Source: an uncultured Candidatus Saccharibacteria bacterium
Lineage (GTDB): Bacteria > Patescibacteriota > Minisyncoccia > Phycocordibacterales > UBA918
Direction: 5' to 3'
Assembly: GCA_964601615.1 (NCBI GenBank)
Contig: CAZRNZ010000001.1
Coordinates: 71,658-135,657, forward strand
DNA length: 64,000 nt
This document shows, one piece after another, positions 5,833-61,555 of the stretch. The position numbers and the translations under genes are program-made. Positions within the stretch are counted from its first letter, which is position 1. Each line of letters begins with the position of its first letter. The notes under the pieces were generated by a model. That model searched no databases, was not told where the DNA came from, and saw only the letters and a list, made by a program, of their open reading frames with translations.

Positions 5833-5917
5833 CCTATTTTCTGTGCAACATATCTGAAGGAAGCCCCGCAGTATAGCGAGGACTGGCTTTCTGAAGATAT
5901 GTTGTACAGAAAATAGG
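5833..5917. repeat. 85-nt imperfect inverted repeat (29-nt arms, about 26/29 pairing, 27-nt loop)
   Basis: CCTATTTTCTGTGCAACATATCTGAAGGA ... TTCTGAAGATATGTTGTACAGAAAATAGG. The loop itself has AGCC/GGCT pairing. No T-run follows on either strand. Confidence 0.5.
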
Positions 5918-6177: not shown

Positions 6178-6296
6178 CTTTTTATTTTATCAGATTGGTT
6201 TCTATTGGGTGGGCGGCGAAGCCGCCTACCTATTCCTAATTTTCCGTAAAATTCCAGCTTTTAGCGGTTCCTCACTGATTTTGTTAAACTATATAA

Positions 6297-15744: not shown

Positions 15745-15777
15745 AAAAAACCGGACAATTTTATTGTCCGGTTTTTA
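15745..15777. terminator. bidirectional terminator AAAACCGGACAATTTTATTGTCCGGTTTT (copy 1 of a duplicated 29-nt element)
   Basis: Identical 29-mer recurs at 16149-16177. Confidence 0.75.
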
Positions 15778-15781
15778 TTAT

Positions 15782-16066
15782 TTAATTAAGCATTTCTGTC
15801 GGTGGTTTTTCCATCTCATTTTCTGAAAAAGTAGTTGGTACTATGGCAATGTTGTTAGTTTTGTTTTCTTTGCCTAATCTTCTAGCATCAACCCAGGCTT
15901 CTTCTGGGGATGAGAATGGTGGTCCGATTACGGTAACTTGAAGTGTTTCAATCTCCTCCTCTTCTTCTTCAGCAAGTTGATCAACTTCTTCCTGAAAGGA
16001 AGTTGTGTCGTCGCCAAAGATAAAGCAAATCCCCGACCAATTTTCAATTTTTACTGAATTTTTCAA
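15782..16066 (-). CDS. hypothetical acidic protein (94 aa)
   Basis: ORF bracketed by the two identical 29-nt hairpins; E-rich. Confidence 0.35.
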   Translation of the reverse strand: MKNSVKIENWSGICFIFGDDTTSFQEEVDQLAEEEEEEIETLQVTVIGPPFSSPEEAWVDARRLGKENKTNNIAIVPTTFSENEMEKPPTEMLN

Positions 16067-16148
16067 TCTCAGCTCCCTCTAAAAGAGAAACAGTTCTAAA
16101 TGCAAGATACCATTTATATTTATATAATTAAAGTTTTGTTTATATATT

Positions 16149-16177
16149 AAAACCGGACAATTTTATTGTCCGGTTTT
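16149..16177. terminator. bidirectional terminator, copy 2 of the 29-nt element
   Basis: Exact repeat of 15749-15777. Confidence 0.75.
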
Positions 16178-16194
16178 AATTTTTTATAAAGATT

Positions 16195-20915: not shown

Positions 20916-20971
20916 TGACGCACAAAGGGGAGATTTCTTTCACTTGTGAAAGAAATCTCCCCTTTGTGCGT
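20916..20971. promoter_or_regulatory. 56-nt perfect palindrome (27-bp arms) 11 nt upstream of the GH18 start codon, between divergent GH18 and SLT genes
   Basis: GACGCACAAAGGGGAGATTTCTTTCAC-TT-GTGAAAGAAATCTCCCCTTTGTGCGTC; arms are exact reverse complements. Confidence 0.6.
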
Positions 20972-21031
20972 CTAAAGTCTGGGAGGCTCAAATTAGCCAT
21001 ATTTTGGCTCTAAATCAAACGGAGTAGCACA

Positions 21032-21403: not shown

Positions 21404-21433
21404 GCGGGGATACCAAAGGTATCCCCGCTTTTT
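21404..21433. terminator. intrinsic terminator GCGGGGATACC-AAA-GGTATCCCCGC plus T-run
   Basis: Follows the SLT gene. Confidence 0.75.
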
Positions 21434-21540: not shown

Positions 21541-22353
21541 ATGCCTAAATACGTAGTTTTAGAAAAGAGGGTCGGTCAGACTCCTTTAAATGTTATTGAA
21601 GAATATAAGCTGGCTTATCCTGAATACAAAGATGTGCCAATGGCTTACGCTGGACGCCTTGATCCGATGGCTGATGGAAAGCTTTTGGTTTTGCTTGGTG
21701 AGGAGTGTAAGAATCAGAAGAATTATCACTCTTTGGATAAAGAATACATTTTTGAAGTATTGTTAGGTTCTTCCTCGGATACTGGAGATGTTCTTGGATT
21801 GATTGAATGGAGGGAAGCTACGAGTTTTGAGGTGGCGCGGCTTCGCCGCGCCACCTTACCTCTCATTGGTAAAATCTCTCTTCCCTATCCAAAGTTCTCA
21901 TCTCGCACAGTTAAAGGAAAGCCATTACATGTTTGGACTCTAGAAAATCGACTTTCAGAAATAGAAATACCAAGTGCTGAAACTGAAGTTTATAAATTAG
22001 ATTTAATAAATCTACGCACAGAGAGAAAAACTGATGTCTATAAAGATGCCATGGATAGAATTTCACTTATTCCAAAAGTTACTGAAGAAAGCAAAGCTCT
22101 GGGAAGGGACTTTCGAAGAGATGATGTGAGGGCGACCTGGAATAGTTGGCTGAGCCAAGAAAAAGATGGATTGGTACAAATTGCGACATTTAGATGTATT
22201 TGTTCTAGTGGTACTTATATGAGGTCATTGGCTGAAGAAATTGGTAAAAACCTTGGAACTACTGGTTTGGCTTATGGAATCCATCGGTCAAAAATAGGCT
22301 TATACAAAGCCATTACTTTCGGCTTTAGCTTTTGGAAAAAGAGATTTGATTGA
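21541..22353 (+). CDS. truB: tRNA pseudouridine(55) synthase TruB
   Basis: Catalytic-Asp motif AYAGRLDPMADGKLLVLLGEECK matches HxGxLDPxAxGxL. CSSGTYMRSLAEEIG matches CSKGTYIRT. Start is either ATG 21541 or 21514. Confidence 0.75.
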   Translation: MPKYVVLEKRVGQTPLNVIEEYKLAYPEYKDVPMAYAGRLDPMADGKLLVLLGEECKNQKNYHSLDKEYIFEVLLGSSSDTGDVLGLIEWREATSFEVARLRRATLPLIGKISLPYPKFSSRTVKGKPLHVWTLENRLSEIEIPSAETEVYKLDLINLRTERKTDVYKDAMDRISLIPKVTEESKALGRDFRRDDVRATWNSWLSQEKDGLVQIATFRCICSSGTYMRSLAEEIGKNLGTTGLAYGIHRSKIGLYKAITFGFSFWKKRFD

Positions 22354-22569: not shown

Positions 22570-22624
22570 GAAAAGCCGCCATTGGCGGTTTTTTGTTTCT
22601 GGTATATATTTATATAGCTTTGAA

Positions 22625-25919: not shown

Positions 25920-26666
25920 ATGAATCAAGAAGAGAGATGGTTGTTGGAGGAAAAATTCGGAGGCGCGGAAAGCGAAGCTTTCCGCGCTGATTTATCGCTT
26001 TTGCGCTCAGGCACTCCCCTTGCCTATTTAATCGGTTCTGTACCGTTTTTAAACTGCAAAATACGCCTCGATTCAAGACCACTTATTCCAAGAGTTGAAA
26101 CTGAATATTGGGTTGAGAAAGCAATTGAAGAAATAAAGAAAGTGGGCGAAGCTTCGCTTCGCCCACTTCGAATCCTCGACCTTTGTTCTGGTTCTGGCTG
26201 TATCGGAGTATCAGTGGCAAAAAACATTCCAAGTACTTTGGTAGATTTTGCTGAGGTTGATTCATCTCACCTAGCAACGATTCTAAAAAATATTAAAGAA
26301 AATAATATTGATATTAAACGAACAAATATTTTAATTGGAGATTTGTTTGAAAATGTGACAGAGAAATACGATTTTATTCTTAGTAATCCACCATATATTG
26401 ATCCAGAAATTGATAGAGCTGAAGAAAGTGTAAAAACCCATGAACCTCATATTGCACTTTATGGTGGTAATGAGGGAATGGAAATAATTACTAAAATTAT
26501 TTCTGAAGCAAAAAATTACTTAACAGAATTAGGACAGCTTTGGATTGAGCATGAACCAGAACAGTCTGGAGATATTGCGACCATTGCAACTGGCGCAGGC
26601 TTCGCCCGCGCCACCACCCTTCCCGACCAGTACGATATATCGCGCTTCACTATTATTGTGAGATAA
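25920..26666 (+). CDS. prmC: release factor glutamine N5-methyltransferase PrmC/HemK
   Basis: SAM-binding LDLCSGSGCIG and catalytic NPPY. Contains three embedded GC hairpins (see findings). Confidence 0.8.
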   Translation: MNQEERWLLEEKFGGAESEAFRADLSLLRSGTPLAYLIGSVPFLNCKIRLDSRPLIPRVETEYWVEKAIEEIKKVGEASLRPLRILDLCSGSGCIGVSVAKNIPSTLVDFAEVDSSHLATILKNIKENNIDIKRTNILIGDLFENVTEKYDFILSNPPYIDPEIDRAEESVKTHEPHIALYGGNEGMEIITKIISEAKNYLTELGQLWIEHEPEQSGDIATIATGAGFARATTLPDQYDISRFTIIVR

Positions 26667-32385: not shown

Positions 32386-32392
32386 ATAATTG

Positions 32393-32415
32393 GAGGGCGG
32401 CAAAGCCGCCTTCCA
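32393..32415. terminator. hairpin GGAGGGCGGC-AAA-GCCGCCTTCC, 8 nt after the hisS stop
   Basis: 10-bp stem with one G-U pair. No strong T-run. Overlaps the 5' end of the next track ORF. Confidence 0.45.
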
Positions 32416-32443: not shown

Positions 32444-33019
32444 GTGCGTTACATTGTATTCGACCTGGAAACCCAAAATACTTTTGCTGATGTTGGCAGT
32501 AATGATTCTGTTAGCCTAGATATTTCTGTGGCCTGTTTTTATGATAGCGAAACGGATCAATATACTACGGTAACTGTTGATGAACTTTCTACTGTTTGGC
32601 CACTTCTAGAAAAAGCTGATGCTTTGGTTGGATACAATAGTAATCATTTTGATATCCCGCTTTTGAATAAATATTATCCGGGAGATTTGACTACCATAAA
32701 GAGTATTGACCTGCTTGAATCTATTCGTGCATCACTCGGCCGTCGTTTGCGATTGGATAGTGTGGCTGAGGCTACTATCGGTGCTAAGAAATCAGCGGAC
32801 GGCCTGCAGGCCGTCCGCTGGTGGCGTGAAGGAAAAATTGATGAAATCAAAAAATATTGTCAGCAAGACGTTAAGGTAACTAAGAAAGTTTTTGATTACG
32901 CAATGACTAACGGACACGTGAAGTTTAAGGACGGCTCTCGCAAGCGCGAAATAGTTCTCGATACTTCAACTTGGACTGAAAAGGAGGATTCTTCGATGAC
33001 TCACGCTCTGCCTTTTTAG
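32444..33019 (+). CDS. DEDDy-type 3'-5' exonuclease (DnaQ/RNase D-like fold)
   Basis: Exo motifs FDLET, YNSNHFDIPLL, YCQQDV. The likely start is GTG at 32444 (M-RYIVFDLET), not the track's TTG at 32390, which sits inside the hisS terminator hairpin. Confidence 0.6.
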   Translation: MRYIVFDLETQNTFADVGSNDSVSLDISVACFYDSETDQYTTVTVDELSTVWPLLEKADALVGYNSNHFDIPLLNKYYPGDLTTIKSIDLLESIRASLGRRLRLDSVAEATIGAKKSADGLQAVRWWREGKIDEIKKYCQQDVKVTKKVFDYAMTNGHVKFKDGSRKREIVLDTSTWTEKEDSSMTHALPF

Positions 33020-35581: not shown

Positions 35582-38524
35582 CTAAACTACAAATTTCTCC
35601 CCTGAAATTATCTCCTTAGAAACATGAATAATCACTTTCTTCAGTTCCTCAATTTCTTCATCTGTGACAATAAAAGAATGTTCTACTACTTCCCCGCTTC
35701 TTTCTTTTGGTTCGACGAAAGAAAGAGTAAAGTTTGGAGATTCTGACATTTCTGGATTTTGCAACTTAAGTAATAATGCATAAAAAACTAATTGTCGCTT
35801 ATATGCCCCACTACTACTTTTAGTTAAGCCTTCAATATCATTTCTGGATTTTGGTTTTCCAGTTTTGTAATCTACAACTTTTATTACCTGACCTTCTTTG
35901 TTGAAATCTAGTCGGTCAATTTTTCCTGTCAAAGGAATTTCTGGTAGATCAACATCTCCGGTTTCTAGTGTGACATGAACAGCTTGCTCGGTTCTAGATT
36001 GCTCATTAATGCCCTCAATTATGTAATTAATATAAGTAACTAGTGCAGGGAACGATTTTTCATGAAGAGAAACTTCATCGCTTTGGCTAAGAGGAAGTTT
36101 TTCTAGAGCATTATGTAGGTATTCAGAAATAACTTTTTCGTTAGGTTTAGTGTTTTCTCGGATATAAAGTCCAACTACTTTTTCCAAAACTTCGTGCACA
36201 GCCTCACCCTTTAGAAGCGACAAAGACCTTGGTTGAGGCTTACGTAAAAGATTCGCGAAGTAATACTTCATCGGATCTTCGATGTAGTTATTTAGATGAG
36301 TGACAGAAAGTCCGCGGGATAAAAATATACTTCTAATTAGTTCAGAATCAATTTTGATTGTTGGTAGTGGTTTTTTGAGAATATTGCTCGGGTCAAAATC
36401 ATTGCCTTCTTTCTCGGTAGAAATCACTTCCAACAAATCGGTTTCAATATCGTTTATAAAACGTGATGGTTCTTTTAGTTTTCCACTAGGATCATTTTCA
36501 CTACTAGATATATATAGACTCTTTTTGGCACGCGTCATTGCTACATAGAATAATCTACGATCGTCATCTTCTGGCCCAAAAGCTGAAATAGGTTCATGAC
36601 TCATTAGTGGCAACTTAAATAAGTCTCTTTTCGATGCTTTGCCAAAAGCATCATCACTGGCTCTCGGTATAAAGACAGTTTCAAATTCCAGTCCTTTTGA
36701 TTTGTGAGCTGTCATTACTTGTACTGCACTGCGGTCATTGTTGATAAATGGTGCGATCAAAGCCAGGTTGTGTAATCTGCGATACTGAAGTTCTCTAGCA
36801 ACATCAAGAGTGGTTGCTTTGCCGTTGGTGACAACCAAGTTTTCTACCTCATCATAAAGGCGACGTAGTATTCTAGTTCCTTCGATTGGCTCGTGAGTCA
36901 TTACATGGTCAAGTAAACCGCTCTTTTCAATTAAAAACTGTAGGACAAGGTGTGGCGAGGTTGCTGTGGTTTTTTTACGAGCCTCATTCAGTAGGTCACC
37001 AATTTGCAGAATTGAATCAATATCAGATACTCCGATTTCTTCTAGTTTCTCTCTGTTATTTATTAATCTAAAAATCGGCCAATATCTATTGCGGGCAGAT
37101 AAAACTAAAGCAATATCATTTCCGCTAGCCTTTAGCCAGCCACCAATCAATACCTCAAATAGACTTTCTTCAGTAAACGAACAGGTAGCAGAAAGTAAGC
37201 TCTCAACTGCTTTTGTAATTGGATGCTCAAGAATGTCACTATCCGCTGATGGGTTTACATCAATGTTATGACGACGAAGTAGACTAGCAATACCTTCCAC
37301 ATCAATATTTCTTCGTACGATTACTGCAATTTCATTAAGTGGAACTTTATTTTCAATTTGTTTATTTATTTCCACCACTAACCAGTCATTTTCAACTGCC
37401 TCGTGAGCAAAATAGCGAAATGAAGGTTTTATATTACTTTCTTCTCGAGCTGAGTTAAGTGGAATGCGCAGTCTAGAGATTTCTTCATCGTCAGATTTAA
37501 TCAAAGAATGAGCAGCGTCTAGTATCGCTTGTCCTGAGCGATAGTTTTCGGTTAAACCAACAACCTCTGTATCTTTGTAATGATCTTCAAAAAATAAGAA
37601 GTTATCCAAGGAAGCACCTTGGAAACGATAAATAGCCTGTTTTTCATCGCCTACCACAAATAGATTTGGTGAATCGTGATAAGAAGCTAGTGTCTCTAAA
37701 ATCTGATTTTGGGAAGAGTTTACATCTTGATGTTCGTCTGCCAAAATATATTGATAAGTTTCTTGTATATCACGAAGCATGTCTTCGTTATTTTGTAGAG
37801 CAGAAACTGTCTCAATAATCATGTCTTCAAAGTCAAAAAGTTTTTGTTCTCTGAGAACTGTTTGATACTGACGATAAACCTGACAAAGTTCTGTTAGTTT
37901 AGTGATACGCTTTTCCATATCAGCGTAAGCACCTCGCACCTTACCTTTATGGGCACCTTTTTCATGAAATTTTGGCTCATCATCAAGAATTTTTTGTAAT
38001 TCAGAAATACGCTCCGAAAAAATATCTGGAGTTATATATTCTTTCTTTAGCTCGTTAATAGCTGAAGGAATTTTTTTGACATAATAAAGTGGGTCACCAT
38101 GAGGTCGAAGACTAGGAAATTGTCCGCTGTCTATGATGTTTTGAATAATAGACAGCTTGTCTATGTCGTTACTTGGTCGTCCACCAATAATAGAAGGATA
38201 AGCATCTGGATATTGGCGAATGAGACTACCTGCAAAGCTGTGAAAAGTATTTACAGCAACTTTGTAACTAGCGTCGCCAATGTAGCGTCTAAGGCGCTCA
38301 CGCATGGCGTGAGCGCCTGCATCGGTAAAAGTAAGTGCCAAGATATTCTCTGGCTTTGTATCTGTCTTTAAGAGGATGTTTGCTATTCTAAGAGCCAGAA
38401 TTTCAGTCTTACCTGTTCCTGGCCCTGCTATTACCATTACAGGTCCTTCGGTCGTGTCCACTGCCTTTTTTTGCTGTTTATTGAGGTTTTTATAGGCCTT
38501 TTCAAAAGCTTCAGAGGTAATCAT
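35582..38524 (-). CDS. UvrD/PcrA-family helicase fused to a C-terminal PD-(D/E)xK (RecB-like) nuclease domain
   Basis: N-terminal Walker A AGPGTGKTE. UvrD motifs throughout. C-terminal GKIDRLDF...VVDYKTGKPK nuclease motif. 980 aa. Confidence 0.8.
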   Translation of the reverse strand: MITSEAFEKAYKNLNKQQKKAVDTTEGPVMVIAGPGTGKTEILALRIANILLKTDTKPENILALTFTDAGAHAMRERLRRYIGDASYKVAVNTFHSFAGSLIRQYPDAYPSIIGGRPSNDIDKLSIIQNIIDSGQFPSLRPHGDPLYYVKKIPSAINELKKEYITPDIFSERISELQKILDDEPKFHEKGAHKGKVRGAYADMEKRITKLTELCQVYRQYQTVLREQKLFDFEDMIIETVSALQNNEDMLRDIQETYQYILADEHQDVNSSQNQILETLASYHDSPNLFVVGDEKQAIYRFQGASLDNFLFFEDHYKDTEVVGLTENYRSGQAILDAAHSLIKSDDEEISRLRIPLNSAREESNIKPSFRYFAHEAVENDWLVVEINKQIENKVPLNEIAVIVRRNIDVEGIASLLRRHNIDVNPSADSDILEHPITKAVESLLSATCSFTEESLFEVLIGGWLKASGNDIALVLSARNRYWPIFRLINNREKLEEIGVSDIDSILQIGDLLNEARKKTTATSPHLVLQFLIEKSGLLDHVMTHEPIEGTRILRRLYDEVENLVVTNGKATTLDVARELQYRRLHNLALIAPFINNDRSAVQVMTAHKSKGLEFETVFIPRASDDAFGKASKRDLFKLPLMSHEPISAFGPEDDDRRLFYVAMTRAKKSLYISSSENDPSGKLKEPSRFINDIETDLLEVISTEKEGNDFDPSNILKKPLPTIKIDSELIRSIFLSRGLSVTHLNNYIEDPMKYYFANLLRKPQPRSLSLLKGEAVHEVLEKVVGLYIRENTKPNEKVISEYLHNALEKLPLSQSDEVSLHEKSFPALVTYINYIIEGINEQSRTEQAVHVTLETGDVDLPEIPLTGKIDRLDFNKEGQVIKVVDYKTGKPKSRNDIEGLTKSSSGAYKRQLVFYALLLKLQNPEMSESPNFTLSFVEPKERSGEVVEHSFIVTDEEIEELKKVIIHVSKEIISGEKFVV

Positions 38525-60958: not shown

Positions 60959-61555
60959 TTATGTCAATTTTGTACAAAATGATCTTCGGTGAATATTACA
61001 AAACCCGTATTTCTTTATTGATTCTCGATGTGTTTTAGTTCCATAGCCTTTGTGTTTGGCAAAGTCATATTCTGGATATTTTACTGAAATTTTCTCCATA
61101 TAGCGGTCACGAGTAACTTTTGCCATGATTGAAGCTAGTCCAATACATAGTTCTTTAGCATCACCTTTGATGATAGTTTCTTGGTTTGGGAAGTTAGACG
61201 GCGCGCGAAGCGCGCCGTCTAGTTTTATTACAACCTCCTTCTCACCAAAGCTATTTCTTTTTTTTAAATTATTTAAACAGTTCAACATTGCTTTATTGAT
61301 AGATGGAACAATGCCAATTGTGTCAATGTCTTTAGCGCTCGTCATGGTTACATGAAAGTCTAAAGAGCCGTTTTTCTTCAAAATTTCTGCTTGTCCAAAA
61401 ACTGCTTCGCGGTTCTTTGGTGTTATCTTTTTACTGTCCCCTACCCCTAAAATCATTCCCCAATCAAAATCTTTCTTTACCAAAACCACTCCTACCGCAA
61501 CTGGTCCAGCTAGTGGTCCTCTGCCAGCTTCATCAATCCCCAACAAGTATTTCAT
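60959..61555 (-). CDS. rnhB: ribonuclease HII
   Basis: MKYLLGIDEAGRGPLAGPVAVGVVLV with the DEDD active-site start. Contains an embedded 25-nt GC hairpin at 61195-61219. Confidence 0.85.
   Translation of the reverse strand: MKYLLGIDEAGRGPLAGPVAVGVVLVKKDFDWGMILGVGDSKKITPKNREAVFGQAEILKKNGSLDFHVTMTSAKDIDTIGIVPSINKAMLNCLNNLKKRNSFGEKEVVIKLDGALRAPSNFPNQETIIKGDAKELCIGLASIMAKVTRDRYMEKISVKYPEYDFAKHKGYGTKTHRESIKKYGFCNIHRRSFCTKLT

Follow-up and report, generated by a model that had tools for sequence, protein, structure and literature searches.

Introduction

Palindromic DNA is known from the coding regions of reduced genomes, in the form of the Rickettsia palindromic elements and the in-frame MITEs of Coxiella and other bacteria. 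Coding palindromes have also been described from the mitochondria of Nematomorpha, where they are either perfect or absent; the authors discuss whether one arm converts the other or is copied from it by template switching, and whether the palindromes may be parasitic (PMC6649704). In Proteobacteria, template switching has been found to conserve perfect inverted repeats (Lavi et al., 2018; PMC5941160), and the same process is reported to both create and maintain RNA hairpins (Monttinen and Loytynoja, 2022; PMC8794818). The d(GCGAAGC) mini-hairpin, which is held by two G-C pairs and a sheared G-A pair, has been described in the context of phage and plasmid priming origins rather than of coding sequence (Kimoto and Hirao, 2026; PMC13037366).

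The palindrome in this study lies within a truB gene on a stretch of 64 kb, with a GC content of ~38%, the whole of which is referred to here as the window. A literature search turned up no account of intragenic or coding palindromes for Patescibacteria. The kind of object is already known, and it is the bacterial, GC-rich and positionally conserved version of it that appears to be new.

Results

The palindrome and its host gene

The initial annotation of the window had placed a perfect hairpin with 11-bp arms at 21831-21855, and the sequence GGTGGCGCGGC-TTC-GCCGCGCCACC is found at exactly this position, with the coordinates and the translation both correct. The perfect stem is even one pair longer on each side, giving a 12+3+12 hairpin of 27 bases (21830-21856), and the GCGAAGC heptamer that had been noted on the complementary strand is present. 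The features of the locus are the following.

21541..22353, plus strand: host gene, TruB-family tRNA pseudouridine synthase, 270 aa (Pfam and NCBIfam matches)
21830..21841, plus strand: left arm of the palindrome, AGGTGGCGCGGC, perfect complement of 21845-21856
21842..21844, plus strand: loop TTC, which is GAA on the minus strand and, with the closing pairs, gives GCGAAGC on that strand
21845..21856, plus strand: right arm of the palindrome, GCCGCGCCACCT, pairing with the left arm

Ten of the 12 stem pairs are G-C. Folded as DNA, the two strands reach -17.8 and -17.7 kcal/mol, and as RNA the hairpin reaches -28.4 kcal/mol in sense and -26.1 kcal/mol in antisense, with a z-score of about -6 to -7 (about -6.9) for either strand and either nucleic acid; both strands of the palindrome fold equally well. 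A scan of the whole window against Rfam 15 returned two tRNA hits only, and the truB hairpin had no covariance-model match at gathering score. An assembly artefact was ruled out by the recurrence of this register and core in independent Logan, ENA, JGI and NCBI assemblies.

The identification of the host gene as truB was borne out by a match of the 270-codon ORF to Pfam TruB_N (1.3e-20), alongside a match to TIGR00431 TruB (1.2e-22) that is under that model's cut-off. The protein has 3190 homologs at E<=1e-10, and those that are named carry the labels Kaiserbacteria, Paceibacterota, Patescibacteria or tRNA pseudouridine(55) synthase. An L33 gene (22390-22569) lies downstream of truB, and also follows truB in syntenic loci. 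The palindrome makes up codons 97-106 (E97 to L106) and, to judge from the intact and conserved ORF, would be translated as EVARLRRATL. It is located between the catalytic-Asp motif RLDPMA (residues 39-44) and CSSGTYMRS (residues 221-229), as the initial annotation had stated, and its description of this part of TruB as variable also agrees with the orthologs; D41 of the first motif and S223-G-T-Y of the second are invariant across 34 orthologs. In an AlphaFold model of the protein (pLDDT 91), the palindrome codons form a helix spanning residues 98-108. The protein matches the TruB structures 1R3E and 1K8W in the PDB, and the palindrome-coded helix aligns with residues about 94-107 of T. maritima TruB (1R3E).

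The third positions of the codons within the hairpin are G or C in 8/10 cases, versus a GC3 of 0.29 elsewhere in the gene, and all four stem pairs that join one third position to another (4/4) are G:C. In the window as a whole, CGG accounts for 1% of Arg codons, GCG for 8% of Ala codons and CGC for 16% of Arg codons; by this codon usage, the joint probability of the codons that encode VARLRRAT, given the peptide, is ~1.6e-8.

Inheritance and paired change among orthologs

Ortholog DNA was fetched where the peptide resembled ARLRRA. Six other orthologs, which share 43-66% protein identity and have a gene GC of 0.45-0.62 where this was computed, carry palindromes in the same register as that of the window, with the loop on CTT/CTG-CGC.

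L081: GGAGGAGGCGCGGC-TGC-GCCGCGCCTCCTCC
L082: GGGAGGCGCGGC-TTC-GCCGCGCCTCCC
L083: GAAACACGaC-TGC-GcCGTGTTTC
L167: GCGGCGCGGC-TTC-GCCGCGCCGC
L170: GGCGGCGC-TTC-GCGCCGCC
L061: TGCGGCGC-TGC-GCGCCGCA

Across the seven sequences, 7/12 stem pairs have changed on both sides (13 cells), and one-sided changes are found in 0/84 cells. When the sequences were shuffled (n = 500), the both-sides count was reached twice and the covariation score never. Pairing amounts to 88% in the register of the window versus 29-55% in slid registers, a paired fraction that is inflated by the orthologs having been picked as Watson-Crick hairpins. Where an amino acid is identical between the window and L081 or L082, the same codon is used in 6/7 and 6/6 cases, respectively, inside the hairpin, compared with 54/160 and 52/160 outside it, and the rare codons of the hairpin are identical in two distant orthologs. 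On the evidence of the aligned sequences, the truB palindrome is heritable, with arms that change only together.

The initial annotation had proposed to compare syntenic truB genes of sister genomes for presence or absence of the palindrome. Among the orthologs studied here, it is present in some truB genes and absent from most, including the closest one (L084, 68% identity), which has an unrelated peptide at the site. The same annotation had also envisaged that orthologs might encode the same residues in DNA that is not palindromic. This is not what was found, as the ARLRRA-like peptide, which recurs in several orthologs, is encoded in them by the same palindrome, and orthologs without the palindrome have unrelated residues. 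Close relatives (72-83% identity) show either a near-perfect palindrome or no trace of one, and 20/24 strong intragenic hairpins are perfect.

Registers, hot spots and insertions in truB

The 160 truB orthologs came from one scan of a genome collection and one of a metagenome, supplemented by individual look-ups. In these orthologs, 23 palindromes have 12 pairs or more, with nine at residues 26-29, 14 at residues 95-106 and none elsewhere. Several registers (at least five) and both loop orientations occur at residues 95-106. The commonest of these registers has its centre 10 nt upstream of that of the window, and is found in eight orthologs with stems of 13-21 bp that all differ in sequence, as in L101 (GGACGCGCCGGATGTTAGC-GAA-GCTAACATCCGGCGCGTCC); here, in a group likewise picked as Watson-Crick hairpins, 16/19 pairs have changed on both sides, and one-sided changes occupy 2/152 cells. 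The loops of the orthologous palindromes vary (GAA, GAG, ACT, CAC, GCA, TGCA), and in the register of the window the 3-nt loop is seen only as TTC or TGC among orthologs.

Strong folds, counted over a fixed alignment segment (69 nt in the window) at a threshold of -25 kcal/mol or lower, were present in 23/160 orthologs at residues 90-112 and in 20/158 at residues 16-38, and numbered 0-4 in each of five control truB regions. The palindromes occupy only two of several sequence-variable parts of truB, a clustering for which tolerance alone may not be the full explanation.

Whether the palindrome is an insertion, which the initial annotation had suggested testing by ortholog alignment, can be answered for this genome. 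There is no gap at the palindrome site in an alignment of 34 orthologs, and the window's truB has here the length that is commonest among 160 distinct orthologs. The truB palindrome of this genome is not an insertion, because there is no indel relative to the 160 orthologs. The insertion idea does hold for the truB site in other lineages, which carry long, hairpin-forming, in-frame insertions there. The length variation of truB is mainly located at the two palindrome spots, with a range of -2 to +37 aa at residues 86-112 and two orthologs with +41 or +42 aa at the first hot spot (residues 26-29); elsewhere, there are only 1-residue differences and isolated outliers, and no indel in 3/5 other truB regions tested.

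The long insertions at the palindrome site (L029, L135, L139, L026, L149 and L125) all fold as long hairpins. L026 carries the apical core GGCCTAGCGGCC of the longer hairpin at this same site in the opposite orientation to L029 and L139, and spacer inversion is a described product of template switching in at least one account of the process (PMC8604942). The core of the L029-type insertion had no match in a viral-contig scan. The same type of scan with the 19-nt core of the truB hairpin gave four matches in GC-rich phage contigs, all unrelated.

Palindromes elsewhere in the window and in related genomes

The window contains seven intragenic perfect stems of at least 10 bp, versus 0.15 in codon shuffles, and no such stem occurs in 90 kb of coding DNA from E. 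coli. The host genes are truB, a methyltransferase gene (with two), and genes for an RNase H-like exonuclease, a UvrD-type helicase, RNase HII and an SLT-like protein, all of which have Pfam support, with the SLT match below Pfam's cut-off. The intragenic palindromes outside truB include the following.

25963..25987, plus strand: perfect palindrome in the methyltransferase gene, GCGCGGAAAGC-GAA-GCTTTCCGCGC
26140..26168, plus strand: second palindrome in the same methyltransferase gene, 13+3+13
26591-26613: third palindrome in the same methyltransferase gene, with one mismatch
32793..32820, plus strand: palindrome in the RNase H-like 3'-5' exonuclease gene, 12+4+12
38292..38318, minus strand: palindrome in the UvrD/AddA-type helicase gene, 12+3+12, encoding AGAHAMRERL
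61195..61221, minus strand: palindrome in the RNase HII gene, 12+3+12, with sense loop TTC

In L034, a homolog of the methyltransferase with 53% identity carries, at the site that corresponds to 25963, a palindrome with another stem and the same GAA loop. The AGAHAMRERL of the helicase is presumably part of the conserved TFTxxAAxEMxxRL motif of the UvrD family, and if the palindrome does lie in a conserved motif, then tolerance of protein change would not be the whole story.

In 452 kb of coding DNA (the window and 84 loci), there are 37 stems versus 2.55 in shuffles, a few of the 37 sitting in doubtful short ORFs. The excess over codon shuffles ranges from 15- to 45-fold across the window and the related loci, and is an excess of GC-rich stems, with AT-rich 9-bp stems at about chance level by a rough estimate. 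Many of the window's hairpins have the GC-GAA-GC core at their tip.

Discussion

Maintenance of the palindrome

The evidence points to a structure that is kept at the nucleic-acid level, independent of TruB function. This is because the arms are perfect, the pattern is binary, paired change is rapid and lacks one-sided intermediates, and the two strands fold equally well, and also because several registers occur at one site, there is growth into long hairpin insertions, and a hairpin core has been inverted. The best explanation, to which we give about an even chance of being right, is a self-maintained coding palindrome with no dedicated function, kept perfect by arm-to-arm copying (template switching). 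That the copying works by template switching, and that no dedicated function exists, is what we infer from these patterns, and the palindrome is probably dispensable for TruB.

Under this explanation, RNA polymerase and the ribosome would read through the palindrome, with no stop in transcription. Where DNA becomes single-stranded in replication or repair, the arms would fold back on each other, with the GC-GAA-GC turn at the tip presumably nucleating the fold-back, and one arm would act as the template for the other (intrastrand template switching, alias quasipalindrome correction). A mutation in a single arm would then be either erased or copied to the opposite arm, and the stem would therefore evolve only by paired changes. 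In a tolerant helix, the protein sequence would follow the symmetry of the DNA. The GC richness within an AT-rich genome could arise if self-maintenance requires a minimum stability, or if conversion is GC-biased; unbiased arm-to-arm copying does not explain a stem that stays 80% GC, and that remains GC-rich at freely changeable third positions, in a gene with a GC3 of 0.29. A stem kept GC-rich in this way suggests that stability is selected for, that conversion is biased towards GC or that the palindrome was acquired recently.

Alternative explanations

An RNA structure in the truB mRNA whose pairing is under selection, for ribosome slowing between folding units, as a block to an exonuclease or as a processing or binding site, is the strongest of the alternatives, albeit an unlikely one. 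It would fit the conserved synonymous sites and the rare GC-rich codons that persist against AT pressure, as well as the conserved register with its paired changes and the strength of the RNA fold (-28.4 kcal/mol, z about -6.9). Window terminators, whose RNA function is known, are equally perfect, and since terminators that act as RNA are perfect palindromes too, perfection and a scarcity of G-U pairs are compatible with an RNA role. For this same reason the G-U test on the sense strand is a weak one; it gave no sense-strand excess of G-U pairs at the truB site (63 vs 71), and mismatches showed no G-T preference. However, one-sided G-U changes are nearly absent in both registers (0/84 and 2/152 cells), and antisense folds as well as sense. 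Most orthologs, including the closest (L084), do without the palindrome, and the strong fold at the truB site, seen in only 23/160 orthologs, is spread over at least five registers and both loop orientations. Objects of the same kind are also found at unrelated positions in unrelated genes, and there is no match in Rfam.

Rather less probable is a functional element at the level of DNA. A hairpin or cruciform, extruded where the DNA is single-stranded or supercoiled, could for instance mark a site for primase or for the exclusion of SSB (of the GCGAAGC mini-hairpin type), make the replication fork pause or help to structure the nucleoid. Such an element could account for the perfect Watson-Crick symmetry of both strands, for the recurrence of the GC-GAA-GC core among the window's hairpins and for a GC richness kept against mutational pressure; d(GCGAAGC) is moreover a DNA mini-hairpin of extraordinary stability that occurs at priming origins of the phage G4 type (PMC13037366). 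The orientation of the loop, compared with GC skew as a test of a role in lagging-strand priming, is mixed, though, with GAA on the plus strand ~9 times and TTC ~5 to 8 times by a tally from listings, and lacks a consistent strand bias across a window in which the cumulative GC skew is mostly rising. Presence among orthologs is patchy, and no sequence is conserved beyond the loop, which in many orthologs is itself ACT, CAC, GCA or TGCA.

An in-frame insertion into truB by a small mobile palindrome of the RPE, MITE or REP kind is very unlikely. No other part of truB is as indel-prone as this site, the long insertions found there are all hairpins, and one insertion core occurs in both orientations. 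In addition, a hairpin at 6208-6230 (GGTGG-GCGGC-GAA-GCCGC-CTACC) loosely resembles the truB one, and hairpin arms in the window are slightly more alike than shuffled arms, with four pairs at 9/11 matches or more versus 0.67 expected, although none of these pairs includes the truB arm and the similarity may reflect no more than GC-rich dinucleotide bias, since the shuffle did not preserve dinucleotides. Against this, the truB of the window has no extra residues, and a unit of 25-27 nt becomes a multiple of three only when its flanks are included. The initial annotation had regarded the hairpin as a copy of a repeated element, but the 25-mer is unique within the 64 kb, even with three mismatches allowed, and only its 13-nt core recurs, once, at 6213. 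Neither target-site duplications nor a GTAG/CGTC tag were found at the truB palindrome, and its register is inherited across orthologs while the sequence drifts.

The chance is slimmer still that the palindrome is an intragenic intrinsic terminator or attenuator, truncating truB transcripts or halting antisense transcription. A scan for consensus terminators listed two hairpins that flank the gene, and did not list the one within it.

21404..21428, plus strand: terminator-like hairpin upstream of truB, 11+3+11 followed by TTTTTCTTTT (terminator scan)
22570..22594, plus strand: terminator-like hairpin after the L33 gene, likely the end of the truB-rpmG transcription unit (terminator scan)

The match to the intergenic terminator family that was claimed in the initial annotation holds for stem and loop, in that the GC stem and the GC-GAA/TTC-GC triloop in truB resemble many intergenic hairpins of the window. 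The Rho-independent terminators of this genome likewise have GC-rich, perfect stems of 11-22 bp and a 3-nt loop (GAA, TTC, AAA or TTT), and the GC closing pairs are often common to both. The match fails for the A- and T-tracts that extend the terminator palindromes, and for their position after stop codons; the truB hairpin has neither, being located at codons 97-106 of a 270-codon ORF, not past a stop codon or in a leader. The 10 nt past its stem read TACCTCTCAT in sense and CAAAACTCGT in antisense, without a T run on either strand. An intrinsic terminator would have a U-rich tract of about 7-9 nt directly 3' of its stem, and the window's terminators mostly have 5-9 T in the corresponding 12 nt. 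T-tracts are absent from the orthologous truB palindromes too, and a U-tract is needed by mycobacterial RNA polymerase, at least as that enzyme is presented in PMC3993855. Going by its sequence, the truB hairpin is not a canonical terminator, because there is no T-tract after it on either strand.

That the palindrome arose by chance, or merely in the wake of selection on the ARLRRA peptide, can practically be dismissed, since although ARLRRA-like peptides are found in several orthologs, they always come with the palindrome and orthologs without it have unrelated peptides, the exact stem pattern has 0 expected matches in shuffles, the codon choice given the peptide is so improbable (~1.6e-8) and palindromes are 15- to 45-fold more frequent than in codon shuffles.

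Other candidates were set aside in the course of the analysis. A palindromic operator for a sequence-specific dimeric protein was ruled out, because the sequence of the stem drifts freely while its pairing persists. Mimicry of the T-loop for TruB autoregulation was dropped, the loop being of 3 nt versus the 7-nt T-loop and the orthologous loops being different.

Implications

Taken more widely, GC-rich perfect coding palindromes may be a lineage-wide heritable feature of Paceibacteria/Kaiserbacteria-like genomes of the candidate phyla radiation. They would lie at fixed positions in housekeeping genes (truB, methyltransferase, UvrD-type helicase and RNase HII), survive deep divergence with arms that change together, grow into long in-frame hairpin insertions and dictate amino-acid sequence. 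This proposal is put forward tentatively, with somewhat more doubt than belief. If true, it would be the first bacterial counterpart of the mitochondrial coding palindromes, as far as the literature shows, and would suggest either that these reduced genomes maintain their DNA in an unusual way, with fold-back copying that is efficient, nucleases that are weak on hairpins and conversion biased towards GC, or, alternatively, a still unknown use of stable hairpins within genes. A tie to missing hairpin nucleases or exonucleases would give specific insight into genome maintenance in the candidate phyla radiation.

On the explanation preferred here, a process of DNA symmetry and not protein function writes part of an essential enzyme, with the ARLRRA helix arising from palindromic DNA. 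The many genomes involved offer a natural system in which to follow the creation, perfection, movement and expansion of palindromes in bacteria, and to test GC-biased conversion. For annotators, the implication is that terminator-like hairpins in these genomes also occur inside genes, and for phylogeneticists that palindromic segments may evolve by clustered, paired changes.

Comparison with known systems

The d(GCGAAGC) mini-hairpin (Kimoto and Hirao, 2026; PMC13037366) is matched as an exact heptamer at the tip of the truB hairpin, on the minus strand. REP sequences are extragenic and multicopy with a GTAG or CGTC tag, whereas the truB palindrome is intragenic, untagged and unique in the window. 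The Rickettsia palindromic elements and MITEs are similar in being translated in frame at tolerant surface positions, but they are multicopy insertions of 100-150 bp that add residues, and the truB palindrome neither adds length nor has a multicopy family within the 64 kb window. Elements of the Rickettsia type also lose the identity of their repeats over time (PMC6649704), whilst the truB arms stay perfect. The long insertions that other lineages carry at the truB site are closer to this type of element.

The inverted repeats attributed to template switching (PMC5941160, PMC8794818) share with this locus long perfect arms in excess of null models, conservation across species, paired changes without intermediates and the same proposed mechanism. 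The first of these studies covers only proteobacterial non-coding regions and the second RNA sequences, whereas the repeats here are protein-coding and would reshape the protein.

The coding palindromes of Nematomorpha are likewise perfect inverted repeats in functional coding genes, with both arms translated and the length of the gene unchanged, and they show the same binary pattern of perfect or absent, with gains and losses between related species. They are, however, mitochondrial and up to 284 bp long, in contrast to the 25-45 bp on a bacterial chromosome seen here. The palindromes of this lineage also differ in being strongly GC-rich within an AT-rich genome, with triloops that are often GC-GAA-GC, in being concentrated in indel-tolerant segments of proteins (with an exception in a helicase gene), and in keeping their register over deep divergence, at 43-66% protein identity.

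Long insertions in truB orthologs

The truB genes of six related loci from other assemblies possess long in-frame insertions at the two hot spots, which lengthen the protein by 14 to 42 amino acids and form hairpins of 80–160 nt on folding. Four lie at residues ~90–112 (L029, L135, L139, and L026) and two at residues ~26–30 (L114 and L124). The core GGCCTAGCGGCC is common to the insertions of L029, L139, and L026, being inverted in L026, and a related core is present in L135. The insertions of L114 and L124, ~125 nt in length, are homologous to each other.

The related loci that include L010, L012, and L069, together with several labelled as Saccharibacteria, carry record titles of Azotimanducaceae, Acidimicrobiales, Chitinophagaceae, or Saccharibacteria. 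These titles are at odds with the truB genes on their contigs, which are 46–60% identical to that of the window, and the bins are probably contaminated or mislabelled.

Intergenic and ORF-flanking hairpins

Intergenic and ORF-flanking palindromes and hairpins of the window
5833–5917: near-perfect hairpin of 85 nt (−50.5 kcal/mol, z −9.0)
6208–6230 and 32391–32415: pair of GC-rich hairpins whose arms are alike, GGTGGGCGGC and GGAGGGCGGC
15746–15776 and 16146–16180: two near-identical hairpins, AAAACCGGACAAT-TTT-ATTGTCCGGTTTT
20917–20972: perfect palindrome, 26+4+26, GACGCACAAAGGGGAGATTTCTTTCA-CTTG-..., 56 nt, 46% GC, the longest in the window

The longest perfect palindrome is located in the divergent intergenic region between a GH18 gene on the minus strand and an SLT-like gene, the latter being directly upstream of truB, and no T-tract flanks it. 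The hairpin at 5833–5917 had no Rfam match, and could represent a small RNA or else another long palindrome of this type. The hairpins at 15746–15776 and 16146–16180 are a duplicated terminator-like pair, situated one on either side of a small ORF (15782–16066). The two GC-rich hairpins each contain one G-T mismatch and have no T-tracts; that at 6208–6230 resembles the truB hairpin, differing by one base per arm.

Palindromes in other coding regions

Palindromes within genes other than truB
25963–25987, 26140–26168, and 26591–26613: three GC-rich palindromes in a methyltransferase gene
38292–38318: palindrome in a UvrD/AddA-type helicase gene, coding for AGAHAMRERL
L030, 560–603: perfect palindrome, 20+4+20, GGTGACGGCAGAGCGGCCGC-GGTT-..., within an 861-nt ORF adjoining truB

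The palindrome in L030, another related locus, is a further long coding palindrome in a gene other than truB. In the window, a single methyltransferase gene (25920–26666) was observed to hold three, of which that at 26591–26613 has one A-C mismatch; at the site of the palindrome at 25963–25987, the homolog in L034 (5146–5955) has a different palindrome. The stretch encoded by the helicase palindrome is presumably the conserved TFTxxAAxEMxxRL motif, in which case constrained residues would be encoded by both of its arms.
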